Shown: positions 2,764 to 37,888 of the stretch, piece after piece
Position numbering within the stretch: the first letter of the stretch is position 1
Layout: each line of letters opens with the position of its first letter
Assembly (NCBI RefSeq): GCF_000027125.1
Contig: NC_017626.1
From: Escherichia coli 042
GTDB taxonomy: Bacteria > Pseudomonadota > Gammaproteobacteria > Enterobacterales > Enterobacteriaceae
Length of the DNA stretch: 64,000 nt
Reading direction: 5' to 3' (one strand)
Notes under the pieces: generated by a model
The model's input: the letters and a program-made list of their open reading frames with translations, nothing else
The model's database searches: none
Told to the model about the DNA's origin: nothing
Translations under genes and position numbers: made by a program

Positions 2764-5439
2764 TTAAGCGGATTTCTTCGCTTTTTTCTCAGCTTTAGCC
2801 GGAGCGGCTTCTTTTTTCGCTGCAGTTTCACCTTCTACATAATCACGACCGTAGTAGGTATCCAGCAGAATCTGTTTCAGCTCGGAGATCAGTGGGTAAC
2901 GCGGGTTAGCGCCGGTGCACTGGTCATCGAATGCATCTTCAGACAGTTTATCCACATTCGCCAGGAAGTCTGCTTCCTGAACGCCAGCTTCACGGATAGA
3001 TTTCGGAATACCCAATTCAGCTTTCAGCGTTTCCAGCCATGCCAGCAGTTTCTCGATCTTAGCAGCAGTACGGTCGCCCGGTGCGCTCAGACCCAGGTGG
3101 TCAGCAATTTCAGCATAACGACGGCGAGCCTGCGGACGGTCATACTGGCTGAATGCAGTCTGCTTGGTCGGGTTGTCGTTCGCGTTGTAGCGAATAACGT
3201 TACAAATCAGCAGGGCGTTTGCCAGACCGTGCGGAATATGGAACTGGGAACCCAGTTTGTGCGCCATTGAGTGACATACACCCAGGAAGGCGTTCGCAAA
3301 CGCGATACCCGCGATAGTTGCTGCACTGTGAACACGTTCACGCGCTACCGGATTTTTAGATCCTTCGTGGTAGGACGCTGGCAGATATTCTTTCAGCAGT
3401 TTCAGCGCCTGCAGAGCCTGACCATCAGAGAACTCAGATGCCAGTACAGAAACATAAGCTTCCATGGCGTGAGTTACTGCGTCCAGACCACCGAAAGCAC
3501 ACAGGGACTTCGGCATGTCCATAACCAGGTTGGCATCGACAATCGCCATATCCGGGGTCAGCGCATAGTCTGCCAGCGGATATTTCTGACCAGTAGCGTC
3601 GTCAGTTACAACCGCAAACGGAGTGACTTCAGAACCTGTACCAGAAGTGGTGGTGACAGCGATCATTTTCGCTTTCACGCCCATTTTCGGGAACTTGTAG
3701 ATACGTTTACGGATATCCATAAAGCGCAGCGCCAGTTCTTCGAAGTGAGTTTCCGGATGTTCGTACATGACCCACATGATCTTCGCGGCGTCCATCGGGG
3801 AACCACCACCCAGCGCGATAATCACGTCTGGTTTGAAGGAGTTTGCCAGTTCTGCACCTTTACGAACGATGCTCAGGGTCGGGTCAGCTTCTACTTCGAA
3901 GAAGACTTCAGTTTCAACGCCTGCTGCTTTCAGTACGGAAGTGATCTGATCAGCATAACCATTGTTGAACAGGAAGCGGTCAGTCACGATGAGCGCACGT
4001 TTGTGGCCATCAGTAATCACTTCATCCAGCGCGATTGGCAGGGAGCCACGGCGGAAGTAGATAGATTTCGGAAGTTTGTGCCACAACATGTTTTCAGCTC
4101 GCTTAGCAACGGTTTTCTTGTTGATCAGGTGTTTCGGACCAACGTTTTCAGAGATGGAGTTACCACCCCAGGAACCACAACCCAGAGTCAGGGAAGGTGC
4201 GAGTTTGAAGTTATACAGGTCACCGATACCACCCTGAGAAGCCGGGGTGTTAATCAGGATACGAGCCGTTTTCATTTTCTGACCGAAGTAAGAAACGCGA
4301 GCCGGTTGGTTATCCTGGTCAGTGTACAGGCAAGAGGTATGACCGATACCGCCCATAGCAACCAGTTTCTCTGCTTTTTCTACCGCGTCTTCGAAATCTT
4401 TAGCGCGGTACATTGCCAGAGTCGGGGACAGTTTTTCATGTGCGAACGGTTCGCTTTCATCAACAACGGTCACTTCACCGATCAGAATCTTGGTGTTTTC
4501 TGGTACAGAGAAGCCTGCCAGTTCAGCAATTTTATAGGCTGGCTGACCAACGATAGCCGCGTTCAGCGCACCGTTTTTCAGGATAACGTCCTGAACAGCT
4601 TTCAGCTCTTTACCCTGCAACAGATAGCCGCCGTGGGTTGCGAAACGTTCACGTACTGCGTCATAAACAGAGTCAACAACAACAACAGACTGTTCAGAAG
4701 CACAGATTACGCCGTTGTCGAAGGTTTTGGACATCAGTACAGATGCAACTGCACGTTTGATATCAGCAGTTTCATCGATAACAACTGGAGTGTTGCCCGC
4801 GCCTACACCGATAGCTGGTTTACCGGAGCTGTATGCGGCTTTAACCATGCCCGGACCACCAGTCGCGAGGATCAGGTTGATGTCTGGGTGGTGCATCAGT
4901 GCGTTAGACAGTTCAACAGAAGGTTGATCGATCCAGCCGATCAGATCTTTCGGAGCACCGGCAGCGATAGCAGCCTGCAGAACGATATCAGCTGCTTTGT
5001 TGGTGGCATCTTTTGCTCGCGGGTGCGGGGAGAAGATAATGGCGTTACGGGTCTTCAGGCTGATCAGCGATTTGAAGATAGCAGTTGAAGTCGGGTTAGT
5101 GGTCGGAACGATACCGCAAATAATACCGATTGGTTCAGCGATAGTGATGGTACCAAAAGTGTCGTCTTCAGACAGAACACCACAGGTTTTTTCATCTTTA
5201 TAGGCGTTATAGATATATTCAGAAGCAAAGTGGTTTTTGATCACTTTATCTTCGACGATACCCATGCCGGATTCGGCAACGGCCATTTTCGCGAGTGGGA
5301 TTCGAGCATCTGCAGCAGCCAGAGCGGCGGCGCGGAAGATTTTGTCTACTTGCTCTTGAGTGAAACTGGCATATTCACGCTGGGCTTTTTTTACACGCTC
5401 TACGAGTGCGTTAAGTTCAGCGACATTAGTAACAGCCAT
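2764..5439 (-). CDS. adhE: bifunctional aldehyde/alcohol dehydrogenase AdhE (891 aa)
   Basis: 891-aa ORF, recognisable AdhE sequence. Confidence 0.97.
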
Positions 5440-5915
5440 AATGCTCTCCTGATAATGTTAAACTTTTTTAGTAAATCATCTGCTCGAATACGAGAGTATA
5501 GTCAGTGCGGTGATGATTTGCTTAACCGATGAAAATCAAAAGCTTACTCGCGCTCACACTCACTGTGATTTACTAAAAGAGTTTAAACATTAGAGTTATT
5601 ATCTCTAATGCGTCACTTCCAGGTGGCGTAAGCAAGATTACTCACTTCTGGGTACTGATTACGTGATCCAAATCAAATTTTTGCAAAGCTGACACCTTTC
5701 AGCATCGCTTTTCGCCATTATAGCTAACAGTTAATAAATTGTAGTATGATTTGTTGGCTACATTATCATGTTTTGCACAACCAGATAACAATAACGAATG
5801 ATAGCAATTTTAAGTAGTTAGGAGGTGAAAAATGCTGTCAAAAGGCGTATTGTCAGCGCGTCTTTTTAACCTTATTTATGGCTAACATTATCCGGCTTTT
5901 GCTTCGGAGCTAACC

Positions 5916-6563
5916 GTGATTCAGACCCTTTTTGATTTTCCCGTTTACTTCAAATTTTTCATCGGGTTATTTGCGCTGGTCAACCCGGTAGGGATTATTC
6001 CCGTCTTTATCAGCATGACCAGTTATCAGACAGCGGCAGCGCGAAACAAAACTAACCTTACAGCCAACCTGTCTGTGGCCATTATCTTGTGGATCTCGCT
6101 TTTTCTCGGCGACACGATTCTGCAACTTTTTGGTATATCAATTGATTCGTTCCGTATCGCCGGGGGCATCCTGGTGGTGACGATAGCGATGTCGATGATC
6201 AGCGGCAAGCTTGGCGAGGATAAACAGAACAAGCAAGAAAAATCAGAAACCGCGGTACGTGAAAGCATTGGTGTGGTGCCACTGGCGTTGCCGTTGATGG
6301 CGGGGCCAGGGGCGATCAGTTCTACCATCGTCTGGGGTACGCGTTATCACAGCATTAGCTATCTGTTTGGTTTCTTTGTGGCTATTGCATTGTTCGCTTT
6401 ATGTTGCTGGGGATTGTTCCGCATGGCACCGTGGCTGGTACGGGTTTTACGCCAAACCGGCATCAACGTGATCACGCGTATTATGGGGCTATTGCTGATG
6501 GCATTGGGGATTGAATTTATCGTTACTGGTATTAAGGGGATTTTCCCCGGCCTGCTTAATTAA
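5916..6563 (+). CDS. ychE: MarC-family inner membrane protein YchE (215 aa)
   Basis: hydrophobic multi-TM ORF, GTG start; conserved position between adhE and oppA. Confidence 0.85.
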   Translation: MIQTLFDFPVYFKFFIGLFALVNPVGIIPVFISMTSYQTAAARNKTNLTANLSVAIILWISLFLGDTILQLFGISIDSFRIAGGILVVTIAMSMISGKLGEDKQNKQEKSETAVRESIGVVPLALPLMAGPGAISSTIVWGTRYHSISYLFGFFVAIALFALCCWGLFRMAPWLVRVLRQTGINVITRIMGLLLMALGIEFIVTGIKGIFPGLLN

Positions 6564-7300
6564 TTCCTTTCAAATGAAACGGAGCTGTCATGCTCCGTTT
6601 ACTTCGTCATTATTTTTACTTTGTTCCCGCGCAGTTATCAAAAGCAAAAGGAATGGGTGAAAATATTCTTCTCAAATTACAGTTGGTTATAAGGATTTCC
6701 TTAACTGCTTCTCCTCACCATCATGTTATTTTCGCCACATCATAATCCTGGGCTTGCTGAAGAATAATTGAAATGATATTAGTAATTCCACTGCTTTTGG
6801 TAGAGGAAAGTGCTAAATAATAATCAATTGTTAAATTATTGTGCATTTCACTACTGGAACTGTAATCAGAAAAGAGAGACATGCTTAACCAATCTCTATT
6901 TGATTGAATTAAAAGATGTTTGTTAAGACATGGATGCAAGCTATAGATTCTGATACGGTCAATAAAAGAGAATTGCTTAACAATTTTGCAAAATGTATTG
7001 GCGAGTAAGAAGCGCATTTGGTACTTTCCGGGCAACCGCCAGACGATTCTTTATTGGTAATGAGAATAATTAACAATTAAAGAGCGTCGCGAAAGAATAA
7101 TGTGTCTCGACAGGGGAGACACAGTACGAATCGACATAAGGTGATCGTCTGAATCACCAGAATAAATAAAGTCGGTGATAGTAATACGTAACGATAAAGT
7201 AACCTGACAGCAGAAAGTCTCCGAGCCTGTGCAGGGTCCCAATCCGGGATTACACATGCTGGTTAATACCAGTAATTATAATGAGGGAGTCCAAAAAACA

Positions 7301-8932
7301 ATGACCAACATCACCAAGAGAAGTTTAGTAGCAGCTGGCGTTCTGGCTGCGCTTATGGCAGGGAATGTCGCGCTGGCAGCTGATGTACCCGCAGGCGTCA
7401 CACTGGCGGAAAAACAAACGCTGGTACGTAACAATGGTTCAGAAGTTCAGTCATTAGATCCGCACAAAATTGAAGGTGTTCCGGAGTCTAATATCAGCCG
7501 AGACCTGTTTGAAGGCTTACTGGTCAGCGATCTTGACGGCCATCCGGCACCTGGCGTCGCTGAATCCTGGGATAATAAAGATGCGAAAGTCTGGACCTTC
7601 CATTTGCGTAAAGATGCGAAATGGTCTGATGGCACGCCAGTCACAGCCCAAGACTTTGTGTATAGCTGGCAACGTTCTGTTGATCCGAACACCGCTTCTC
7701 CGTATGCCAGTTATCTGCAATATGGGCATATCGCCGGTATTGATGAAATTCTTGAAGGGAAAAAACCGATTACCGATCTCGGCGTGAAAGCTATTGATGA
7801 TCACACATTAGAAGTCACCTTAAGTGAACCCGTTCCGTACTTCTATAAATTACTTGTTCACCCGTCAACTTCACCGGTGCCAAAAGCCGCTATCGAGAAA
7901 TTCGGCGAAAAATGGACCCAGCCTGGTAATATCGTCACCAACGGTGCCTATACCTTAAAAGATTGGGTCGTAAATGAACGAATCGTTCTTGAACGCAGCC
8001 CGACCTACTGGAACAACGCGAAAACCGTTATTAACCAGGTAACCTATTTGCCTATTGCTTCTGAAGTTACCGATGTCAATCGCTACCGTAGTGGTGAAAT
8101 CGACATGACTTATAACAACATGCCGATCGAATTGTTCCAGAAGCTGAAAAAAGAGATCCCGGACGAAGTTCACGTTGATCCATACCTGTGCACTTATTAT
8201 TACGAAATTAACAACCAGAAACCGCCATTTAACGATGTACGTGTGCGTACCGCACTGAAACTGGGTATGGACCGCGATATCATTGTTAATAAAGTGAAAG
8301 CGCAGGGCGACATGCCCGCCTATGGTTACACTCCACCGTATACTGATGGCGCAAAATTGACTCAGCCGGAATGGTTTGGCTGGAGCCAGGAAAAACGTAA
8401 CGAAGAAGCGAAAAAACTGCTGGCTGAAGCGGGTTATACCGCAGACAAACCGTTAACCATCAACCTGTTGTATAACACCTCCGATCTGCATAAAAAGCTG
8501 GCGATTGCAGCCTCTTCATTGTGGAAGAAAAACATTGGTGTAAACGTCAAACTGGTTAACCAGGAGTGGAAAACGTTCCTCGACACCCGTCACCAGGGCA
8601 CTTTTGATGTGGCCCGTGCAGGCTGGTGTGCAGACTACAACGAACCAACTTCCTTCCTGAACACCATGCTGTCGAACAGCTCGATGAATACCGCGCATTA
8701 TAAGAGCCCGGCCTTTGACAGCATTATGGCGGAAACGCTGAAAGCGACTGACGAGGCGCAGCGCACAGCTCTGTACACTAAAGCAGAACAACAGCTGGAT
8801 AAGGATTCGGCCATTGTTCCTGTTTATTACTACGTGAATGCGCGTCTGGTGAAACCGTGGGTTGGTGGCTATACCGGCAAAGATCCGCTGGATAATACCT
8901 ACACCCGGAATATGTACATTGTGAAGCACTAA
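7301..8932 (+). CDS. oppA: periplasmic oligopeptide-binding protein OppA (543 aa, start at internal ATG of listed ORF)
   Basis: signal peptide MTNITKRSLVAAGVLAALMAGNVALA; SBP family 5; first gene of opp operon. Confidence 0.95.
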   Translation: MTNITKRSLVAAGVLAALMAGNVALAADVPAGVTLAEKQTLVRNNGSEVQSLDPHKIEGVPESNISRDLFEGLLVSDLDGHPAPGVAESWDNKDAKVWTFHLRKDAKWSDGTPVTAQDFVYSWQRSVDPNTASPYASYLQYGHIAGIDEILEGKKPITDLGVKAIDDHTLEVTLSEPVPYFYKLLVHPSTSPVPKAAIEKFGEKWTQPGNIVTNGAYTLKDWVVNERIVLERSPTYWNNAKTVINQVTYLPIASEVTDVNRYRSGEIDMTYNNMPIELFQKLKKEIPDEVHVDPYLCTYYYEINNQKPPFNDVRVRTALKLGMDRDIIVNKVKAQGDMPAYGYTPPYTDGAKLTQPEWFGWSQEKRNEEAKKLLAEAGYTADKPLTINLLYNTSDLHKKLAIAASSLWKKNIGVNVKLVNQEWKTFLDTRHQGTFDVARAGWCADYNEPTSFLNTMLSNSSMNTAHYKSPAFDSIMAETLKATDEAQRTALYTKAEQQLDKDSAIVPVYYYVNARLVKPWVGGYTGKDPLDNTYTRNMYIVKH

Positions 8933-9017
8933 TGGCAATACGTGGGGCAGGCGTGTCCTGCTCCACGGTGTCTGATTTTTATCGCATTACAGAAGGCACA
9001 GGCCAGAAGGTAGGGCA

Positions 9018-9938
9018 ATGTTAAAATTTATTCTACGTCGCTGTCTGGAAGCGATTCCGACGCTATTTATTCTTATTACTATTTCGTTCTTCATGATGCG
9101 CCTCGCGCCGGGAAGCCCTTTTACCGGCGAACGTACTTTACCGCCAGAAGTGATGGCCAATATCGAAGCGAAATATCATCTTAATGATCCGATCATGACA
9201 CAGTATTTCAGCTACCTGAAACAACTGGCGCATGGCGATTTCGGTCCATCGTTTAAATATAAAGATTATTCGGTCAACGACCTGGTTGCATCCAGTTTTC
9301 CCGTTTCTGCCAAACTGGGAGCCGCAGCATTTTTCCTTGCGGTAATACTGGGTGTTAGTGCTGGCGTTATTGCAGCATTAAAACAAAACACCAAATGGGA
9401 CTATACCGTGATGGGGCTGGCAATGACCGGGGTTGTTATCCCCAGTTTTGTGGTTGCGCCATTATTAGTCATGATATTTGCGATCATTTTGCATTGGCTG
9501 CCGGGCGGTGGCTGGAATGGTGGTGCGCTTAAATTCATGATATTGCCGATGGTGGCGTTGTCACTCGCCTATATCGCCAGTATTGCGCGCATTACCCGTG
9601 GCTCTATGATTGAGGTTTTACACTCCAACTTTATTCGTACTGCCCGGGCGAAAGGGTTACCTATGCGGCGGATCATTTTACGCCACGCATTAAAACCTGC
9701 TCTGTTACCCGTGCTCTCCTATATGGGCCCCGCATTTGTCGGCATTATTACCGGTTCTATGGTTATCGAAACCATTTATGGTTTGCCGGGGATTGGGCAA
9801 CTGTTCGTTAATGGCGCATTGAACCGTGACTATTCCTTAGTGTTAAGCCTGACTATCCTGGTTGGTGCGTTAACCATTTTGTTTAATGCCATTGTCGATG
9901 TGCTATATGCGGTTATCGACCCGAAAATCCGTTACTGA
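9018..9938 (+). CDS. oppB: oligopeptide ABC permease OppB
   Basis: 306-aa multi-TM ORF, operon position. Confidence 0.95.
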   Translation: MLKFILRRCLEAIPTLFILITISFFMMRLAPGSPFTGERTLPPEVMANIEAKYHLNDPIMTQYFSYLKQLAHGDFGPSFKYKDYSVNDLVASSFPVSAKLGAAAFFLAVILGVSAGVIAALKQNTKWDYTVMGLAMTGVVIPSFVVAPLLVMIFAIILHWLPGGGWNGGALKFMILPMVALSLAYIASIARITRGSMIEVLHSNFIRTARAKGLPMRRIILRHALKPALLPVLSYMGPAFVGIITGSMVIETIYGLPGIGQLFVNGALNRDYSLVLSLTILVGALTILFNAIVDVLYAVIDPKIRY

Positions 9939-9952
9939 TACTGGAGCTCGCG

Positions 9953-10861
9953 ATGATGTTAAGTAAGAAAAACAGCGAGACGCTGGAAAATTTCAGTGAA
10001 AAGCTGGAGGTCGAAGGGCGCAGCTTGTGGCAGGACGCACGTCGACGTTTTATGCATAACCGTGCGGCGGTTGCCAGTCTGATAGTGCTGGTGCTAATCG
10101 CGTTATTTGTCATCCTGGCACCGATGCTTTCGCAGTTTGCCTATGACGATACTGACTGGGCGATGATGTCCAGCGCCCCAGATATGGAGTCCGGTCACTA
10201 CTTTGGTACTGACTCATCCGGTCGCGACCTGCTTGTGCGTGTTGCGATTGGCGGGCGTATCTCACTCATGGTCGGTGTTGCTGCGGCACTGGTGGCTGTG
10301 GTCGTCGGGACACTTTATGGTTCGCTTTCCGGTTATCTGGGCGGTAAAGTGGATTCGGTAATGATGCGTCTGCTGGAAATCCTCAACTCCTTCCCATTCA
10401 TGTTCTTCGTCATTTTGCTGGTGACCTTTTTCGGTCAAAACATCCTGCTGATTTTCGTGGCGATAGGCATGGTTTCCTGGCTGGATATGGCTCGTATTGT
10501 GCGTGGGCAAACCCTGAGTCTGAAGCGTAAAGAGTTTATTGAGGCGGCACAAGTTGGCGGTGTATCGACGCCGGGCATTGTTATTCGCCACATTGTACCG
10601 AACGTACTCGGTGTGGTGGTGGTCTACGCATCGCTACTGGTGCCCAGCATGATCCTCTTTGAATCTTTCCTTAGCTTCCTGGGGTTGGGGACGCAAGAGC
10701 CGTTAAGCAGCTGGGGCGCATTGCTGAGTGATGGCGCGAACTCGATGGAAGTCTCTCCATGGTTACTGTTGTTCCCAGCGGGATTCCTCGTGGTGACGCT
10801 ATTTTGTTTCAACTTTATCGGCGATGGCTTGCGTGATGCCCTCGACCCGAAAGATCGTTAA
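9953..10861 (+). CDS. oppC: oligopeptide ABC permease OppC
   Basis: 302-aa multi-TM ORF, operon position. Confidence 0.95.
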   Translation: MMLSKKNSETLENFSEKLEVEGRSLWQDARRRFMHNRAAVASLIVLVLIALFVILAPMLSQFAYDDTDWAMMSSAPDMESGHYFGTDSSGRDLLVRVAIGGRISLMVGVAAALVAVVVGTLYGSLSGYLGGKVDSVMMRLLEILNSFPFMFFVILLVTFFGQNILLIFVAIGMVSWLDMARIVRGQTLSLKRKEFIEAAQVGGVSTPGIVIRHIVPNVLGVVVVYASLLVPSMILFESFLSFLGLGTQEPLSSWGALLSDGANSMEVSPWLLLFPAGFLVVTLFCFNFIGDGLRDALDPKDR

Positions 10862-10872
10862 GGAGTGCAGCC

Positions 10873-11886
10873 ATGAGCGTAATTGAAACTGCAACTGTGC
10901 CGCTCGCACAACAACAGGCTGACGCACTGCTGAACGTGAAAGATTTGCGTGTCACCTTTTGTACCCCGGACGGCGACGTCACGGCGGTCAATGATTTGAA
11001 TTTTTCCCTACGTGCCGGAGAAACGCTGGGCATTGTAGGTGAGTCTGGTTCGGGTAAATCGCAAACTGCATTTGCGTTGATGGGCCTGTTGGCTGCCAAC
11101 GGACGTATTGGCGGATCGGCAACCTTCAATGGGCGTGAAATCCTCAATTTGCCAGAGCGTGAACTCAATAAACTGCGCGCTGAACAAATCTCAATGATTT
11201 TTCAGGACCCAATGACTTCGTTGAATCCCTATATGCGTGTCGGTGAGCAGTTGATGGAAGTGCTGATGCTGCATAAGAACATGAGCAAAGCTGAGGCGTT
11301 TGAAGAGTCGGTGCGGATGCTCGATGCGGTAAAAATGCCGGAAGCGCGTAAACGCATGAAAATGTACCCGCATGAATTTTCTGGTGGCATGCGTCAGCGA
11401 GTCATGATTGCGATGGCATTGCTATGTCGACCTAAGCTGCTGATTGCTGATGAACCCACTACTGCGCTGGACGTCACCGTACAGGCGCAGATCATGACTC
11501 TATTGAATGAACTGAAGCGGGAATTTAATACCGCCATCATTATGATCACCCACGATCTTGGCGTGGTGGCGGGGATCTGCGACAAAGTGCTGGTAATGTA
11601 CGCCGGGCGCACGATGGAATATGGCAACGCGCGCGATGTCTTTTATCAACCCGTTCATCCTTATTCTATCGGTTTACTCAACGCGGTGCCGCGTCTCGAT
11701 GCGGAAGGTGAAACAATGTTGACCATCCCGGGTAATCCGCCAAACTTGCTGCGATTACCGAAAGGTTGCCCGTTCCAGCCACGTTGTCCACATGCGATGG
11801 AAATTTGTAGTAGCGCACCGCCGCTGGAAGAGTTTACGCCTGGCCGTCTGCGTGCTTGCTTTAAACCGGTGGAGGAACTGTTATGA
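10873..11886 (+). CDS. oppD: oligopeptide ABC ATPase OppD
   Basis: Walker A GESGSGKS, ABC signature, Walker B. Confidence 0.95.
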   Translation: MSVIETATVPLAQQQADALLNVKDLRVTFCTPDGDVTAVNDLNFSLRAGETLGIVGESGSGKSQTAFALMGLLAANGRIGGSATFNGREILNLPERELNKLRAEQISMIFQDPMTSLNPYMRVGEQLMEVLMLHKNMSKAEAFEESVRMLDAVKMPEARKRMKMYPHEFSGGMRQRVMIAMALLCRPKLLIADEPTTALDVTVQAQIMTLLNELKREFNTAIIMITHDLGVVAGICDKVLVMYAGRTMEYGNARDVFYQPVHPYSIGLLNAVPRLDAEGETMLTIPGNPPNLLRLPKGCPFQPRCPHAMEICSSAPPLEEFTPGRLRACFKPVEELL

Positions 11887-12887
11887 ATGCTGTAACTGAA
11901 GGAAGAAAAGTCCTCCTTGAAATCGCCGATCTGAAAGTGCACTTTGAAATCAAAGATGGCAAACAGTGGTTCTGGCAACCGCCGAAAACGCTCAAAGCCG
12001 TCGATGGTGTCACTCTTCGCCTGTATGAAGGGGAAACATTAGGTGTGGTAGGGGAATCGGGATGCGGTAAGTCCACCTTTGCTCGCGCCATCATCGGTTT
12101 GGTCAAGGCGACCGACGGTCATGTTGCCTGGTTAGGTAAAGAGTTGCTGGGCATGAAGCCCGATGAATGGCGTGCCGTTCGCAGTGATATTCAGATGATT
12201 TTCCAGGATCCGTTGGCATCGCTAAACCCGCGTATGACCATCGGCGAGATTATCGCTGAACCGATGCGTACCTATCATCCGAAAATGTCACGCCAGGAAG
12301 TTCGCGAGCGCGTGAAGGCGATGATGCTGAAAGTCGGGTTATTGCCTAACCTGATTAACCGCTATCCGCATGAGTTCTCCGGTGGGCAGTGCCAGCGTAT
12401 CGGGATTGCTCGTGCACTTATTCTTGAACCGAAGCTGATTATCTGTGATGAGCCGGTGTCGGCGCTGGACGTGTCAATTCAGGCGCAGGTGGTCAACCTG
12501 CTCCAGCAGCTGCAACGTGAGATGGGATTGTCATTAATTTTTATCGCTCACGACCTGGCCGTGGTAAAACACATTTCCGATCGTGTGTTAGTGATGTATC
12601 TCGGCCATGCGGTAGAACTGGGGACCTATGATGAGGTCTATCACAATCCGCTACATCCTTACACCAGGGCATTGATGTCGGCAGTCCCCATACCTGATCC
12701 GGATCTGGAGAAGAACAAAACCATCCAGTTACTGGAAGGGGAATTACCGTCGCCGATCAACCCGCCTTCCGGTTGTGTTTTCCGTACCCGTTGCCCGATT
12801 GCCGGTCCGGAGTGTGCCAAAACACGTCCTGTGCTGGAGGGGAGTTTCAGACACGCCGTTTCTTGCCTGAAAGTCGATCCGCTTTAA
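11883..12887 (+). CDS. oppF: oligopeptide ABC ATPase OppF
   Basis: Walker A GESGCGKST, ABC signature; 4-nt overlap with oppD. Confidence 0.95.
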   Translation: MNAVTEGRKVLLEIADLKVHFEIKDGKQWFWQPPKTLKAVDGVTLRLYEGETLGVVGESGCGKSTFARAIIGLVKATDGHVAWLGKELLGMKPDEWRAVRSDIQMIFQDPLASLNPRMTIGEIIAEPMRTYHPKMSRQEVRERVKAMMLKVGLLPNLINRYPHEFSGGQCQRIGIARALILEPKLIICDEPVSALDVSIQAQVVNLLQQLQREMGLSLIFIAHDLAVVKHISDRVLVMYLGHAVELGTYDEVYHNPLHPYTRALMSAVPIPDPDLEKNKTIQLLEGELPSPINPPSGCVFRTRCPIAGPECAKTRPVLEGSFRHAVSCLKVDPL

Positions 12888-15134: not shown

Positions 15135-16388
15135 CTATTTTTGCGCCGATTCTTTATTGTCAGCTTTCGTTTCTTGTTCATCGTTATCGCTGAAAATACC
15201 ATGACCTGAGTTCAACAACATTGAAACGAGCATATCATTATTAATCTCTTCACCATTTAAAACTCGCGCCAGAATTTCGCTGCCAAACAGTTGCGGTGAG
15301 AGAATGATATCCGGATGTACCATCTTAATCTTATTCAGGTTTTTGCTATCACTGACGGCGAGAACTGTTTTGACATCACTGCTCATATCTTTTGCCGATA
15401 GTACAACAAACGCGTTATCAGCATCGTTATCACTCAGCGCCAGAATGGCCCGGCATCGATCGATTCCTGCTTTCTTTAATACTGAACTGTCATTACTGTC
15501 ACCGGGGATAACATCAGCGTTATCACCTAAGCGTTGCTCAAGTTGCTTGATATCATCTTCAGGCAAGTTGCTGATAACCGTTACATTTTGTCCGCGTTGA
15601 TTCAGTTGCAGAATCGTATTGATGGCGAGAATCGAATGCCCGCAAACAATAAAATGATCTTTACGATGCATTGTATGATTGTTTCCTTTTACAAGTTTGT
15701 TGAATCCCCCGCGGATAAGCGGACCAAAAATTGAAGTCATGGAGGTGGCAAAAACGGTAATGCCGGAAATAATGACCGAAATAGTGAACAATCGTGCTGA
15801 TTCAGAAACAGGGACAATATCGCCATAGCCGACGGTTGACATGGTTTCTATCGAAAAATAGAACGCGGTCATCAAACTTTCTATTCGCGGATTAAAACCT
15901 TCGCTTAAATAAAGCGCACCGTAGGTGGAGTAAAACAGTAACGTCGTGAAACTAATAAATGCGAAAATTGTCCCGGCTGCGGCGCTACTGTGGGAGAAGT
16001 CTTTGCGCAGTATCAGCAAAAACACCAGCGTAAAAATGCAAAATCCAATACTAAATTTCAGCCAGGGATAAAAATGCAGGGTGTAAATTAGCGCTATCAA
16101 CAACAAAATGATACTGATTGCCCATGCGAGCTTTGCCCGGAACAGTAAGCCAATGGAGTTCAGGACAAGAAAGACGCCGAGCATAAAGAGTGGGGCGTTT
16201 GCCAGCAAGGAGAGATCTAACTCTGAAAAGGCTTTGATATGGAAAATATCAAGCAAATTGACCGACATACCATAGATTGTTTTAAAAATAAGCAATCCAT
16301 TTAAAAAGACGGCCAGCGCGAGAATGTCGTGCCGTAGGGTCACCCATAAATTTGTTGCTGTTTGTTTGAATGTAGCCCAGTGACTCAC
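15135..16388 (-). CDS. kch: voltage-gated potassium channel Kch (417 aa, GTG start; listed ORF extends 6 codons further 5')
   Basis: TM region with selectivity filter TVGYGD, C-terminal RCK/TrkA domain. Confidence 0.9.
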   Translation of the reverse strand: MSHWATFKQTATNLWVTLRHDILALAVFLNGLLIFKTIYGMSVNLLDIFHIKAFSELDLSLLANAPLFMLGVFLVLNSIGLLFRAKLAWAISIILLLIALIYTLHFYPWLKFSIGFCIFTLVFLLILRKDFSHSSAAAGTIFAFISFTTLLFYSTYGALYLSEGFNPRIESLMTAFYFSIETMSTVGYGDIVPVSESARLFTISVIISGITVFATSMTSIFGPLIRGGFNKLVKGNNHTMHRKDHFIVCGHSILAINTILQLNQRGQNVTVISNLPEDDIKQLEQRLGDNADVIPGDSNDSSVLKKAGIDRCRAILALSDNDADNAFVVLSAKDMSSDVKTVLAVSDSKNLNKIKMVHPDIILSPQLFGSEILARVLNGEEINNDMLVSMLLNSGHGIFSDNDEQETKADNKESAQK

Positions 16389-16688
16389 TGATACCTCTGT
16401 AACCACAATTTTGTTTAATTATCGTAACGTGCACATTTTCTGAACATACATGCAGCACGTGAATGTGTTAAACAATAGTAGATGACTTCATCCGCAGTAA
16501 TCAAAGGTTTTGAGTGAGCAACTCTGCGTCAGGAAAGGGCATTTTTCCTGAATATGCTCGCATCATATAAAGAAATACAGATAAAGTTATTATCTGCTTG
16601 TGGGGTTGAATGCACTGACCGACCTATAAGGAAAGGCCAAACAAGAACACGGTTGCAAAAACCGTGCCCTTAAATATTGAATCTCTAT

Positions 16689-17137: not shown

Positions 17138-17170
17138 TTATTGAATATGATTGCTATTTGCATTTAAAAT
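17138..17170 (+). promoter_or_regulatory. tonB promoter region with Fur-box-like AT-rich dyad
   Basis: ttgaatatgattgctatttgcatttaaaat resembles Fur box (GATAATGATAATCATTATC-like) about 40-70 nt upstream of tonB start. Confidence 0.5.
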
Positions 17171-17208
17171 CGGGGCCTGGTTTTTCTACTGAAATGATTA
17201 TGACTTCA

Positions 17209-17928
17209 ATGACCCTTGATTTACCTCGCCGCTTCCCCTGGCCGACGTTACTTTCGGTCTGCATTCATGGTGCTGTTGTGGCGGGTCTGCTCTATACCTC
17301 GGTACATCAGGTTATTGAACTACCTGCGCCTGCGCAGCCAATTTCTGTCACGATGGTTGCGCCTGCGGATCTCGAACCGCCACAAGCCGTTCAGCCACCA
17401 CCGGAGCCGGTGGTAGAGGCAGAACCGGAACCTGAGCCGATCCCCGAACCGCCAAAAGAAGCACCGGTGGTCATTGAAAAGCCGAAGCCGAAACCTAAGC
17501 CAAAACCGAAGCCGGTGAAAAAGGTACAGGAGCAGCCAAAACGCGATGTCAAACCCGTAGAGTCGCGTCCGGCATCACCGTTTGAAAATACGGCACCCGC
17601 GCGCCCGACATCAAGTACGGCAACGGCTGCAACCAGCAAGCCGGTTACCAGTGTGGCTTCAGGACCACGCGCATTAAGCCGCAATCAGCCGCAGTATCCG
17701 GCACGAGCACAGGCATTGCGCATTGAAGGGCAGGTTAAAGTTAAATTTGATGTCACGCCGGATGGTCACGTGGATAACGTGCAAATCCTCTCAGCCAAGC
17801 CTGCGAACATGTTTGAGCGTGAGGTGAAAAATGCGATGCGCAGATGGCGTTATGAGCCGGGTAAGCCAGGCAGTGGGATTGTGGTGAATATCCTGTTTAA
17901 AATTAACGGCACCACCGAAATTCAGTAA
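17209..17928 (+). CDS. tonB: TonB energy transducer (239 aa; start at internal ATG of listed ORF)
   Basis: [17 protein letters not shown]..., Pro-rich EP/KP repeats, C-terminal TonB domain. Confidence 0.95.
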
Positions 17929-20139: not shown

Positions 20140-20778
20140 ATGAAAAAGTTAACAGTGGCGGCTTTGGCAGTAACAACTCTTCTCTCTGGCAGTGCCTTTG
20201 CGCATGAAGCAGGCGAATTTTTTATGCGTGCAGGTTCTGCAACCGTACGTCCAACAGAAGGTGCTGGTGGTACGTTAGGAAGTCTGGGTGGATTCAGCGT
20301 GACCAATAACACGCAACTGGGCCTGACGTTTACTTATATGGCGACCGATAACATTGGTGTGGAATTGCTGGCAGCGACGCCGTTCCGCCATAAGATCGGC
20401 ACCCGGGCGACCGGCGATATTGCAACCGTTCATCATCTGCCGCCAACACTGATGGCGCAGTGGTATTTTGGTGATGCCAGCAGCAAATTCCGTCCTTACG
20501 TTGGGGCAGGTATTAACTACACCACCTTCTTTGATAATGGATTTAACGATCATGGCAAAGAGGCGGGGCTTTCCGATCTCAGTCTGAAAGATTCCTGGGG
20601 AGCTGCCGGGCAGGTGGGGGTTGATTATCTGATTAACCGTGACTGGTTGGTTAACATGTCAGTGTGGTACATGGATATCGATACCACGGCTAAGTACAAA
20701 TCTGGTGTTACTACCGTAAAAGACTCGGTACGACTGGATCCGTGGGTGTTTATGTTCTCCGCAGGATATCGTTTTTAA
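20140..20778 (+). CDS. ompW: outer membrane protein OmpW (212 aa)
   Basis: signal peptide MKKLTVAALAVTTLLSGSAFA, beta-barrel ending in ...GYRF. Confidence 0.95.
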   Translation: MKKLTVAALAVTTLLSGSAFAHEAGEFFMRAGSATVRPTEGAGGTLGSLGGFSVTNNTQLGLTFTYMATDNIGVELLAATPFRHKIGTRATGDIATVHHLPPTLMAQWYFGDASSKFRPYVGAGINYTTFFDNGFNDHGKEAGLSDLSLKDSWGAAGQVGVDYLINRDWLVNMSVWYMDIDTTAKYKSGVTTVKDSVRLDPWVFMFSAGYRF

Positions 20779-20817: not shown

Positions 20818-20842
20818 TGGTCATCAAATGACCAGTTTTTTC
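20817..20842 (+). terminator. ompW intrinsic terminator, overlapped by the int stop codon
   Basis: hairpin ctggtcat caaa tgaccag followed by tttttt. Confidence 0.7.
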
Positions 20843-21954
20843 CATTCCTTACCGCGTGCGTCGTTGTAAATATCGGTCATTTTTTGATTCGAATGGCCTA
20901 GCAAAATTTTGGTATCAACCCCCTGCTCTCTGAACAATCGCTCTGATAAAGATCTCTGCTCATGGAAAGAGGGAGGGGTGCCATTAGCACGCCAGTTGTA
21001 ATCCACAGAATCCCGGGCTTTTTTAAATGCAACGGTTAATGTTGCTGGCTTAACCATCCCGCCGCGCTTAGCTGTCCCTTTCGCGTGATGGTGGTGCAAT
21101 AGCCACGGACTAAGAACGCAATCGCGGCAGGATGACACCACATCATCCAGGGTGAGATTTAATTTATCGCAACGCAGAGCCAGAGGGATGGCAATCCGGG
21201 TTCCTGTTTTTTGCTGTTCGACATGAAGATAACCATCCCGGATATCCGAAAATTGCATTTTGCAAATATCTGAAAGGCGCTGGCCTGTCATCAGTGCCAG
21301 CAGCATACCGCGCTGTAAAAAGTAACCATCCTTTTCCGCTGCGTTATAAATCATCATCCACTCATCAAAAGTCAGTCGCTGTCTTGATATCCGCACCTGC
21401 GGTTTTTTTGCCGATTCTGCAGGGTTAAAGCCTGGCGGGACATCGCCCGTTTGCTGAGCTTCCCGGAAAACATCGATCAGTACTTTCCTGAAAATTTGTC
21501 CCATTCTGTTATGTCCTCTGGCCTTGTACTCTTCCAGTACTGATACCACATCTTTTACGGTTATGGCATCTAACGGTCTGGTGCCAAAACGTTCATCAAA
21601 TACCCTGAGAGGGGCCGCTTTCTGTTTCAGCGTGTTGAGTTTGATCTCGCCGTTTTCATATCTTTCCTGTTGAATTTTTCTGTAATTATTCAGAAAAATG
21701 GTAACGGTTGATGAACCGCCGGTATCACTAATAATTTTCTCCTGCAGACTGAGCATTTGTTCCATTTGCTGCCGGGCAAGACGGCTGTTCGCTTCTGCTG
21801 CAATAGTTTCTGCCAGTTTCTGGTCAATACTGCCGAGACCGTGATTTTTGCCTGTTATGGGATGCCTGTAACGCCAGTAAACTTTGTTATTTCTTTTGTC
21901 AAAATACGGAGATAATCCCGGAACATCGGTTTTATATTTTCGCGGGCGCGCCAT
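20824..21954 (-). CDS. int: phage tyrosine integrase (376 aa)
   Basis: C-terminal catalytic region with R...HxxR...Y pattern; adjacent to att junction and xis. Confidence 0.9.
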   Translation of the reverse strand: MARPRKYKTDVPGLSPYFDKRNNKVYWRYRHPITGKNHGLGSIDQKLAETIAAEANSRLARQQMEQMLSLQEKIISDTGGSSTVTIFLNNYRKIQQERYENGEIKLNTLKQKAAPLRVFDERFGTRPLDAITVKDVVSVLEEYKARGHNRMGQIFRKVLIDVFREAQQTGDVPPGFNPAESAKKPQVRISRQRLTFDEWMMIYNAAEKDGYFLQRGMLLALMTGQRLSDICKMQFSDIRDGYLHVEQQKTGTRIAIPLALRCDKLNLTLDDVVSSCRDCVLSPWLLHHHHAKGTAKRGGMVKPATLTVAFKKARDSVDYNWRANGTPPSFHEQRSLSERLFREQGVDTKILLGHSNQKMTDIYNDARGKEWKKLVI

Positions 21955-35290: not shown

Positions 35291-35501
35291 AAACGGTTTG
35301 CGGGAAAAGGAGAGTTAAGTAGAATTGCAGCGGGTGCTTGAGGCTATCTGTCTCAGGCATGAACACCAAAAGGCAGATAGAGAAAAGCCCCAGTTAACAT
35401 TACGCGTCCGGCAAGACGCTTAACATTAATCTGAGGCCATATCTATGCTCTACACACGTAGGTTAGCCTCTTACGTGCCGAAAGGCAAGGAGAAGCAGGC
35501 T

Positions 35502-35657
35502 ATGAAGCAGCAAAAGGCGATGCTAATCGCCCTGATCGTCATCTGTTTAACCGTCATTGTGACGGCACTGGTAACGAGGAAAGACCTCTGCGAGGTACGA
35601 ATCCGAACCGGCCAGACGGAGGTCGCTGTCTTCACAGCTTACGAACCTGAGGAGTAA
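35502..35657 (+). CDS. hok: Hok/Gef-family type I toxin (51 aa), HokD/RelF-like
   Basis: MKQQKAMLIALIVICLTVIVTALVTRKDLCEVRIRTGQTEVAVFTAYEPEE matches the Hok family signature. Confidence 0.8.
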   Translation: MKQQKAMLIALIVICLTVIVTALVTRKDLCEVRIRTGQTEVAVFTAYEPEE

Positions 35658-35726: not shown

Positions 35727-35746
35727 ACCCGCTTCGGCGGGTTTTT
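35727..35746 (+). terminator. intrinsic terminator after hok (copy 1 of a duplicated terminator)
   Basis: cccgc ttcg gcggg ttttt. Confidence 0.7.
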
Positions 35747-35822
35747 GCATTAGTCTGGTTGACAAAAATAGAAAAATGCGAAAATATGTGGTTTACGAAT
35801 TCTAAAAAAAGCGAAACTTGAA

Positions 35823-36473
35823 ATGAATGAAAATCAGTTAGCTCCTTGTTGGGAATTTCAACCTTATCTTGCTGAAAACTATGTTCGCCACTTGTTGGCG
35901 GAGATCGCTAACGTACTTGAGCAGCTGTACTATCATAAGCACGCATTAGACAGCAACTGGTCTGAAGGTGTAAGGGCTTATGATTGGGTCAGAAATCATC
36001 TTATTCAAAATGAAGATGCAATTCCTGGCCTTGAGATGATTTCCAAGGGGTTGGACTATGTAGTTGCTTTAAATAAAGTTCCGCTACAATTTACCAAAGA
36101 TTGCATTAATAACCCCAAAAAGAAACATCGTCTGCGTCGAAATAAAGTAGAGTATGAGCAGCTCTCATTGTTTGGTGATGTTGAGGCTGAGCAAGATATT
36201 ACATGGCGAGTCATAGCTGAGCCTTTTTTATCCGAAGAGGGCGATGGTGAATTAGAGTCCACACTGCCTCGTTGGGAGGTAGCTCTTGTTGGATTTAATA
36301 CTTATGGTGCTCAGATTAGTATAGTTTCTCATCAATCTACAGCATCGATGCCGCTTATGCCTCTTGATTATAACACACTCCCTGACGAAGCGGAGATTAA
36401 TAAGGTGCCTCTTCGTCGGCGTACGAAGGATAAAGATTTGGATGTGAGCAGTGATGGAACATCAGGTGAATAA
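35823..36473 (+). CDS. hypothetical protein (216 aa), first gene of a low-GC two-gene cassette
   Basis: ORF after TTGACA-containing promoter-like sequence; no motif recognised by eye. Confidence 0.7.
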   Translation: MNENQLAPCWEFQPYLAENYVRHLLAEIANVLEQLYYHKHALDSNWSEGVRAYDWVRNHLIQNEDAIPGLEMISKGLDYVVALNKVPLQFTKDCINNPKKKHRLRRNKVEYEQLSLFGDVEAEQDITWRVIAEPFLSEEGDGELESTLPRWEVALVGFNTYGAQISIVSHQSTASMPLMPLDYNTLPDEAEINKVPLRRRTKDKDLDVSSDGTSGE

Positions 36474-37557
36474 CTTCACTGAGTATCGGGGTGATAAGCT
36501 CAAACTAGCGAGAATGGCTGTTGGGCTTTCTTGTGAAGAGTTAGCCGAAAAAATTGGCAAGACAAAGCAATTCGTTAGCAAACTGGAGAAGGGGTGCAGG
36601 CCATCGGAGCAATGTCTTGAGTTAATATCTTCAGCGCTTATGATTAAGTCCAGTTTTCTTTTTACTGAACGAAAATACGCTCTGGAAAGTGATGTCTGCC
36701 ATTTTCGGAGTAAGAAGTCCAGGACTCAAACGCTGACTAATAGTGTATTGGCCAGGGCTGAGATTCTTAATATTATAATTTCTGCTGTTGAAGGTGAAAT
36801 CGAATTTCCTGACGTTAACATACCGGAGCACCCAGGGGCTGAATTACTTACTCCGAATGATATTGAGCGAGTGGCAGAAGATTGTCGCCGTGCCTGGAAT
36901 TTAGGTCTTGGCCCTATATCATCAATGGTTAAATTGGCGGAGAGTTTAGGGGTAATCGTTGCGCATGTTACGGGAGTCGATGATCGTGTTGATGCTTTTA
37001 CTGTTCACAATAACAGGCCTGTTATCATCAGGAACAATGTTAAAAAAAGCATATGTAGATTTCGCTCTGATTTAGGTCATGAATTAGGGCATTTAGTAAT
37101 GCATGAGGGCATAACGACAGGTGATAAACTTACGGAATCACAAGCCGATCACTTTTCGAGCGCCTTATTAGTTCCCAGGTTATCTTTCATTAAAGAATTT
37201 CCACGAATACGAGGTAAGCAATTCGACTGGAATGCTCTGGTTGAATTTAAACTTAGATGGAAAATCAGCCTTAAAATGTGTATTTATCGAGCCAGCGCAT
37301 TAGGCTTATTGACCCAGGAACAGGCAAGAACTGGCTATATGCATCTTAATTCCAGAGGGTATACGAGAGTTGAACCTGGTGATGAACTTTTGCGCCCTGA
37401 AGAACCCGGCATGCTGGCCGAGGCGATTGAAATGCTGGATGATGCAACCTGGCTAAGAATTCTTATGAAAACTGGCTTGAGCCAAGATTTAATTCGTGAG
37501 TTGTTCTCCATCAACAGACCTATTACAAATCCAAGAAATATTTTCCAGATTGTTTGA
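36454..37557 (+). CDS. fused XRE-family HTH / ImmA-IrrE (COG2856-type) zinc metallopeptidase (367 aa)
   Basis: N-terminal HTH (LSCEELAEKIGKTKQFVSKLEKG) and HExxH motif HELGHLVMHE; overlaps upstream gene by about 20 nt. Confidence 0.8.
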   Translation: MEHQVNNFTEYRGDKLKLARMAVGLSCEELAEKIGKTKQFVSKLEKGCRPSEQCLELISSALMIKSSFLFTERKYALESDVCHFRSKKSRTQTLTNSVLARAEILNIIISAVEGEIEFPDVNIPEHPGAELLTPNDIERVAEDCRRAWNLGLGPISSMVKLAESLGVIVAHVTGVDDRVDAFTVHNNRPVIIRNNVKKSICRFRSDLGHELGHLVMHEGITTGDKLTESQADHFSSALLVPRLSFIKEFPRIRGKQFDWNALVEFKLRWKISLKMCIYRASALGLLTQEQARTGYMHLNSRGYTRVEPGDELLRPEEPGMLAEAIEMLDDATWLRILMKTGLSQDLIRELFSINRPITNPRNIFQIV

Positions 37558-37561
37558 GTAT

Positions 37562-37582
37562 ACCCGCTTCGGCGGGTTTTTT
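37562..37582 (+). terminator. intrinsic terminator (copy 2, identical core to 35727-35746)
   Basis: acccgcttcggcgggtttttt. Confidence 0.7.
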
Positions 37583-37714
37583 GTTTTTATTTTCAACGTG
37601 TTTGAAGTTTTGGACGGTGCCAGAATAGAATCAAAAATACTTAAGTAGCGCGCAGGGAGAAGAGGGATGGACCCCGAACAGGGGGAGTGCTATTTATCTG
37701 GAAGGATTCTGTTG

Positions 37715-37888
37715 ATGAAAATCGAAGAATTACGTGAAATTTTTAGTGAAGATGGCCTCTATGCTGTGCGCGTTGAGAATGGGGGTATTACCTACACAGC
37801 GTTAATTCCTGATGATCATGTAGTGTTATCTGTTGAGGCATTCATTGAATACTTGGAAAGACTCGGTTTCAAGGTAGTTCGGGAATAA
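37715..37888 (+). CDS. hypothetical small protein (57 aa)
   Basis: internal ATG with GGAAGG upstream. Confidence 0.45.
   Translation: MKIEELREIFSEDGLYAVRVENGGITYTALIPDDHVVLSVEAFIEYLERLGFKVVRE

Follow-up and report, generated by a model that had tools for sequence, protein, structure and literature searches.

RosmerTA, described by Millman et al. 2022, is a family of two-gene toxin–antitoxin (TA) systems in which a single protein combining an XRE helix-turn-helix (HTH) with an M78 peptidase (the antitoxin, RmrA) is encoded next to a toxin, RmrT. The tested system, from Escherichia coli OLC-716 (sequences in Table S2 of that study), defends at 37 C, and its rmrA deletion mutant was not transformable (Millman 2022). 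Here, we describe a small cassette with this architecture in a 64,000-nucleotide stretch of the E. coli 042 genome (RefSeq assembly GCF_000027125.1, contig NC_017626.1), the whole of which is referred to as the window. We give a probability of roughly 75% to the reading that the cassette is a RosmerTA-type TA and anti-phage moron, carried in the nin region of a lambdoid prophage integrated at ompW; within that reading, we infer both toxicity and defence.

Studies of related systems provide the background against which the locus can be read. A prophage TA module of E. coli E101, treated in the literature as RosmerTA, makes clpP essential, with the toxin substitution T46S acting as a suppressor (Rousset 2021). 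Those Pectobacteriaceae strains that carry RosmerTA, and no others, have rmrA and clpX as essential genes. The system of Gordonia phage Kita defends against Bas54 and Bas59, two phages of the BASEL collection, and its RmrT, which ends in a membrane segment at the C-terminus, causes membrane depolarisation (Ernits et al. 2023, PMC10440598). In Streptococcus pneumoniae, clpX becomes essential through the Rosmer-type pair RipAB (Spr1630/Spr1629), whose toxin, RipA, is neutralised in a ClpX-dependent manner; RipA acts on the sliding clamp DnaN, and the triggering of competence serves as the read-out (PMC12795458). RmrT toxins are mechanistically diverse, and the common denominator, an emerging property of the family, is restraint that depends on RmrA and ClpXP. 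A further E. coli system, PD-lambda-2, has three genes, with a HigB-like toxin upstream and a third component needed for defence, and in PD-lambda-2 it was the Xre-peptidase protein itself that proved to be toxic (Vassallo et al. 2022, PMC9519451).

Gene content and family assignment

The cassette is an autonomous promoter-to-terminator operon of two genes, rmrT followed by rmrA (Table 1). An earlier note, made from the sequence alone, had singled it out as an AT-rich unit of a 216-amino-acid (aa) open reading frame (ORF) overlapped by one of 367 aa, and had proposed a defence or TA module. Both ORFs lie where that note placed them in the window and overlap by 20 nt; rmrA yields 367 aa from its ATG, and a GTG at 36451, one codon upstream, would yield 368 aa. 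The base composition is also as described, with a guanine–cytosine (GC) content of 41.5% over the 1815 bp between the hairpins against a window mean of 50%, which ranks in the lowest 0.3% of all 1815-bp segments of the window. In RefSeq the two products are labelled 'hypothetical protein' (RmrT) and 'helix-turn-helix domain-containing protein' (RmrA), and an Rfam scan found no known RNA within the cassette.

Table 1. Features of the rmrTA cassette and its immediate flanks (window coordinates)
Feature	Position	Strand	Details
rmrT, predicted toxin/effector	35823..36473	+	216 aa, WP_001004956.1; PADLOC RmrT PDLC03929, phrog_5786
rmrA, predicted antitoxin/regulator	36454..37557	+	367 aa, WP_000401168.1; PADLOC RmrA PDLC03943, HTH_3, Peptidase_M78
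Hairpin/T-run copy 1, hokD terminator, left insertion boundary	35727..35746	+	exact 20-mer repeat, terminator-like
Hairpin/T-run copy 2, rmrTA terminator, right insertion boundary	37562..37581	+	exact 20-mer repeat, terminator-like
Sigma-70-type promoter of the cassette: -35 TTGACA 35759-35764, 17-nt spacer, -10 AAATAT 35782-35787	35759..35787	+	
Leader element GGTTTACGAATTC, candidate operator for the RmrA HTH	35790..35802	+	conserved across cassettes
Left flank, outside the cassette: hokD/mok/sok type I toxin-antitoxin locus	35332..35657	+	Rfam sok RF01794 117 bits; RefSeq hokD
Right flank, outside the cassette: rem-like gene, then DUF968, rusA, Q	37667..37888	+	aligns to rem of mEp460 and K-12; RefSeq

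Judged by its sequence, the cassette is a member of RosmerTA, a family already catalogued, and PADLOC would call it RosmerTA. One protein unites an XRE-type HTH with an M78 domain, the adjacent gene matches an RmrT model, both genes point the same way and rmrT lies immediately upstream of rmrA, an order repeated at 10 of 10 other loci. The proposal of a defence or TA module is borne out in that both genes match RosmerTA models. RmrA matches its model with E 6.2e-105, together with 13 further RmrA models of PADLOC, in keeping with the suggestion that a fusion of HTH and COG2856-type peptidase would be an antitoxin-like partner. Within RmrA, the N-terminal HTH and C-terminal HExxH peptidase motif that had been read from the translation are recovered by Pfam as HTH_3 (residues 17–63, ~36499–36639) and Peptidase_M78 (residues 177–282, ~36979–37296). 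HELGH occupies residues 209–213 (37078–37092) and is followed by a downstream glutamate motif, ESQADHFSSALLVP (E-x2-A-D-x-F). Motifs of this type supply the third metal ligand in the M78 clan and, because both HELGH and ESQADHFSSALLVP are present, the peptidase active site looks complete. Among PDB sequences, only the HTH domain of RmrA found a match.

RmrT matches PDLC03929 with E 4.6e-25 (residues 7–209 of 216, profile positions 5–195 of 198) and belongs to PHROG 5786, a family whose label carries no function. No match was found in Pfam for RmrT or any of 60 family members, and neither NCBIfam nor a profile search of PDB sequences returned anything for RmrT. The earlier note's idea of an unrecognised new effector has to be given up in its original form, in that PADLOC already has a model for the subfamily to which RmrT belongs. 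When 1.84 billion cluster representatives were searched exhaustively with HMMER, only 69 RmrT clusters were recovered at E <=1e-3, nearly all of ~200 aa, and PDLC03929 was matched by 10 of the 10 distant relatives tried. At all 10 other loci examined, where toxin identity ranges from 84% down to ~23%, a gene for an HTH and M78 protein (342–373 aa) lies immediately downstream of the toxin gene; at locus L008, the downstream gene call shows the M78 domain only. One distant rmrTA pair (locus L011, positions 2804–8600) has a resolvase gene on one side and, on the other, genes for an SMC/AAA-ATPase and then a reverse transcriptase, surroundings that look like a defence island.

A first AlphaFold2 model of RmrT, made from 13 close homologues, had a predicted local distance difference test score (pLDDT) of 62 and was replaced by a model from a 60-sequence alignment (pLDDT 86.4, predicted template modelling score 0.76). 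This model predicts a soluble alpha/beta protein, with no transmembrane helix, in which two long N-terminal helices lead into a sheet of three strands, after which come two short helices and a further three strands. The C-terminal tail (residues 172–216, 36336–36470) is modelled with lower confidence and holds, at 192–200, a motif conserved family-wide, [LIV]xxPx[VLI]xx[RK]; the tail may serve for docking, be a target of cleavage or act as a degron. The structural search that had been suggested for this gene was successful in its first part, yielding a confident model, but not in its second: Foldseek returned only uncharacterised members of the same family from AFDB50 and nothing significant from the PDB. 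Polar positions conserved across the family are D43 (90%), E110 (92%), Q113, R129 (88%), E133 (87% acidic) and R/K89/92. In the PD-(D/E)xK core, arranged alpha-beta-beta-beta-alpha-beta, an acidic residue lies on strand 2 and (D/E)xK on strand 3; D43, E110 and E133 of RmrT lie off these canonical strand positions. Our best guess, a weak one, is that RmrT could be a metal-dependent nuclease-like enzyme built on a restriction-endonuclease-like core, and 'nuclease-like' should be taken as a weak lead and not as a finding.

The assignment of toxin and antitoxin to the two genes can also be viewed through natural disruption. In the sole copy interrupted by an insertion sequence (IS), that of E. coli FDAARGOS_1249, IS5 lies in the 5' part of rmrT (locus positions 534–1502) and leaves a 140-aa remnant ORF beside an intact rmrA (WP_000401168.1), which fits toxin/antitoxin polarity. 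Truncated RmrT variants are common.

Boundaries, promoter and mobility

The cassette is a mobile moron with exact boundaries. The same 20-mer, ACCCGCTTCGGCGGGTTTTT, stands at both of its ends and, with up to 3 mismatches allowed, nowhere else in the window; two copies arose in 0 of 100 shuffles. Both copies are flagged as intrinsic-terminator-like, being GC-rich and stable with a UUCG loop (folding energies of -15.1 kcal/mol for copy 1 and -10.9 kcal/mol for copy 2), and the bracketing by identical hairpin and T-run copies that the earlier note described is thus exact.

In mEp460, HannyBb, the PPompW phages and Rac, hok is followed directly by rem and the cassette is missing. The left flank of phage mEp460 aligns up to window position 35747 and its right flank from 37562, the two alignments overlapping at this empty site on a single hairpin copy; because they share one hairpin, the insertion consists of 1815 bp of cargo plus a duplicated 20-bp terminator. 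Across 5426 complete E. coli genomes, the cassette is carried by 236 (with >=99% identity in 223 of 237 matching cassette records), and the hokD-rem junction is uninterrupted in at least 2785. Queries spanning the junctions found the left one intact in 231 genomes and the right one in 220, and in all remaining genomes the match ends exactly at the hairpin (breakpoints 35747 and 37562). Related prophages, whose comparison had been proposed as a check, are far from invariant here: they either have or lack the segment, and its limits are precisely the two copies of the terminator.

Movement beyond this site is seen in other genera, where orthologous pairs (53–84% toxin identity) occupy other prophage slots, and together with the exact breakpoints it upholds the view of a self-contained, horizontally acquired cassette. 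In Xenorhabdus and Enterobacter, the pair lies in the nin region; in Serratia (loci L003-L005, locus positions 6001–7768), rmrTA lies between the gene for the Q antiterminator and the holin/lysozyme genes. This Q-to-holin slot of the late operon is the site that carries stx in Stx phages. A tblastn search with the toxin found no match among 50,697 deposited phage genomes, and the cassette was seen in prophages only. The Enterobacter cassette ends in a terminator of its own, with the same 6-bp stem (ACCCGC/GCGGGT) and a different loop, and in the likeliest history, as read from these sequences, the 3' terminator that the cassette brought with it was nearly identical to that of hokD, and the two recombined.

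In lambdoid prophages of E. coli, the position just after the hokD terminator serves as a slot for varying cargo, as seen at four loci. It may be followed by rem directly, by a DUF968 block without rem, by the RosmerTA cassette or, in strain RM9387, by a reverse-oriented type II TA pair (RelE/ParE and HTH). The duplicated hairpin brackets the Rosmer cargo only. A general hairpin-duplicating insertion mechanism was considered and finds no support, because the alternative cargo at the slot is not bracketed by duplicated hairpins.

The promoter of the cassette had been proposed from a perfect TTGACA. The -35 element stands, and TTGAC is invariant in 9 of 9 orthologous cassettes, including members with ~22–27% toxin identity, but the -10 element is weak. 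A simple consensus promoter scan does not list the TTGACA site because AAATAT matches the -10 consensus at only 3 of 6 positions. It is conservation among the orthologous cassettes, rather than fit to the consensus, that speaks for a real promoter. In an alignment of upstream regions, similarity among cassettes begins at GGTTGACA. The AAATAT -10 and the element GGTTTACGAATTC are common to enteric cassettes, with GGTTTACGAATTC kept in those of E. coli, Enterobacter, Serratia and locus L013, and kept in part in those of L007 and L011. With GGTTGACAAAA (35757–35767), it forms a direct-repeat-like pair ~33 bp apart in the rmrTA leader; enteric orthologues have kept both elements, and related copies are also present in distant cassettes (at L009, as two TTGACA sites). 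The GGTTGACAAAA/GGTTTACGAATTC pair is a candidate operator for the RmrA HTH.

Further afield in the window, the left third (1–20800) is host chromosome, with ychE (5916–6560), kch (15135–16403, minus strand), tonB (17158–17925) and ompW (20140–20775), and with a run of large ORFs at ~7229–12887 that we take to be the opp operon from the gene order of E. coli. The prophage integrase gene (20824–21954) starts right after ompW, and for this reason the prophage is regarded as a lambdoid one of the PPompW type. Downstream of Q lies a type II DNA methyltransferase gene (41048–42094; PADLOC MTase_II, E 4e-167), with no adjacent restriction gene noted; in the related prophage of ABU 83972, the methyltransferase gene is followed by tRNA genes and a TerB-family gene.

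Proposed mechanism and competing explanations

In the mechanism that we propose, RmrA would bind the leader through its XRE HTH and repress, and so autoregulate, the rmrTA operon, while RmrA and host ClpXP together would hold RmrT inactive or short-lived. Phage infection, or loss of RmrA or ClpXP function, would then free RmrT, and the free toxin would arrest or kill the cell before the phage cycle ends, as abortive infection. By analogy with ImmA/ImmR, IrrE/DdrO and CapP/CapH, the M78 peptidase domain probably acts as the switch, and its presumed substrate would be either the HTH or linker of RmrA itself or the conserved disordered C-terminal tail of RmrT.

A more specific version of this scheme is a speculative one, to which we give little credence. 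In it, RmrT of the PDLC03929 type would be a structurally new effector class, with a restriction-endonuclease-like core on which D43/E110/E133 and R89/K92/R129 would form a non-canonical catalytic constellation, and its release would require two keys: the RmrA peptidase would process the RmrT tail at the 192–200 motif and ClpXP would degrade it. Under such gating, any phage block of RmrA or ClpXP would arm the toxin. If true, the scheme would account for the essentiality of ClpX/ClpP that Rosmer toxins impose in every case, unrelated as they are.

It is worth setting out the points that weigh against the assignment of a RosmerTA-type defence function. Firstly, BLASTP found no similarity between the OLC-716 RmrT and the RmrT described here, and hhalign put the probability for the two families at 0.7%; remote homology between the two was dropped on the strength of that profile–profile value. 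As the toxins are unrelated, the tested phenotypes transfer only through the homology of RmrA and the shared architecture. Secondly, because known RmrT toxins act in unrelated ways, no particular activity may be assumed for this one. Thirdly, RmrA matches NCBIfam NF052239 (spr1629-family repressor/antitoxin; E 1.5e-45) with 155.9 bits against a curated cut-off of 335 bits, and is to be read as a relative and not as an equivalog. Lastly, neither RefSeq accession was found in searchable literature.

The main alternative, which we regard as unlikely, is that the genes form a genuine RosmerTA-type pair without a defence role, acting as a prophage addiction module or in stress signalling, the role proposed for RipAB. 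RipAB, of the Rosmer family, has a physiological read-out outside defence; the cassette adjoins another addiction-type module, hok/sok; the RM9387 prophage holds its RelE/ParE and HTH pair in the same slot; and RmrT is unrelated to the toxins shown to defend. On the other hand, protection against phages has been found for two RosmerTA systems whose toxins differ, and the pair is found in classic moron slots of several prophages and, at L011, beside a cluster of AAA-ATPase and reverse-transcriptase genes. Moreover, defence and addiction can coexist.

We consider it very improbable that the HTH-peptidase protein is instead a damage-responsive switch for prophage induction, of the ImmA/ImmR or IrrE/DdrO kind, with the first ORF as an accessory and no toxin involved. 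RmrA does share the M78 domain common to ImmA, IrrE and CapP, matches the PADLOC models capP (1.6e-14) and capH (1.5e-4), and carries the PHROGs family label 'transcriptional regulator'. Yet most otherwise similar prophages lack the cassette and so do not need it; it lies in the nin region, far from an immunity region equipped with an HTH repressor and YdaS/YdaT-type genes of its own; it moves among unrelated slots as an autonomous unit, complete from promoter to terminator; and rmrA has proved essential wherever this was tried in the RosmerTA family.

That the cassette is a decaying or silent passenger without current function in this strain is equally hard to credit. In its favour, some variants of the toxin are truncated and one copy is disrupted by IS5, the -10 element is a weak one, and the related ABU 83972 prophage has frameshifted genes. 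Against it, the strain has two intact ORFs that are >=99% identical in 223 genome records, no part of the active-site motifs is missing, and conservation of the two proteins and of the promoter extends across genera at 53–84% toxin identity.

Significance and relation to described systems

With the RosmerTA-type reading preferred, what is new here is modest: the exact anatomy of the insertion, a conserved promoter and leader, and a confident structure model of RmrT for a subtype unrelated to the characterised ones. The cassette is a clean natural example of how a defence or TA moron is built and moves, with its own promoter, its own terminator and a duplicated hairpin, and it can be compared with thousands of empty sites and with other cargo in the slot. 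The PDLC03929-type subtype of RmrT is widespread in Proteobacteria, now has a confident predicted structure and, being present in ABU 83972 and other well-studied strains, is readily accessible to experiment. As Rosmer systems make ClpX/ClpP essential, carriage of the cassette could also shift the set of essential host genes in ~4% of E. coli strains.

Comparison with described systems places the cassette among the Rosmer pairs. PD-lambda-2 resembles it as an E. coli defence system with an Xre-peptidase fusion, and differs in its HigB-like and third genes, for which the cassette has no counterpart. In CapH/CapP, ImmR/ImmA and DdrO/IrrE, an M78 metallopeptidase module likewise works alongside an XRE HTH repressor module, but the two are separate proteins controlling a neighbouring operon; there is no separate repressor gene inside the cassette, where HTH and protease are fused in one ORF, RmrA, and paired with a toxin. 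RipAB has the Rosmer-type architecture, and the model of its antitoxin family (spr1629) is matched by RmrA, albeit below the cut-off; it differs in that RipA acts on DnaN, with competence as the read-out. The Kita system, whose defence is narrow in spectrum, is also a phage-borne pair of RmrT and RmrA, with a membrane segment in its toxin where the RmrT described here is predicted to be soluble.

The E101 module is prophage-borne, as is the cassette, and probably belongs to the same subtype as the OLC-716 system, since the OLC-716 RmrT has a threonine at position 46. It is to the experiments on this subtype that defence, antitoxin essentiality and ClpP dependence belong, and its RmrT, in OLC-716, matches PDLC03935 where the one described here matches PDLC03929. 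The likeness lies in the two-gene operon, in which an upstream protein of ~220–240 aa is joined to an XRE-HTH and zinc-peptidase protein of ~370 aa, in the E. coli origin common to both, and in the antitoxins, the OLC-716 RmrA being 29% identical to that of the cassette (E 2e-35).

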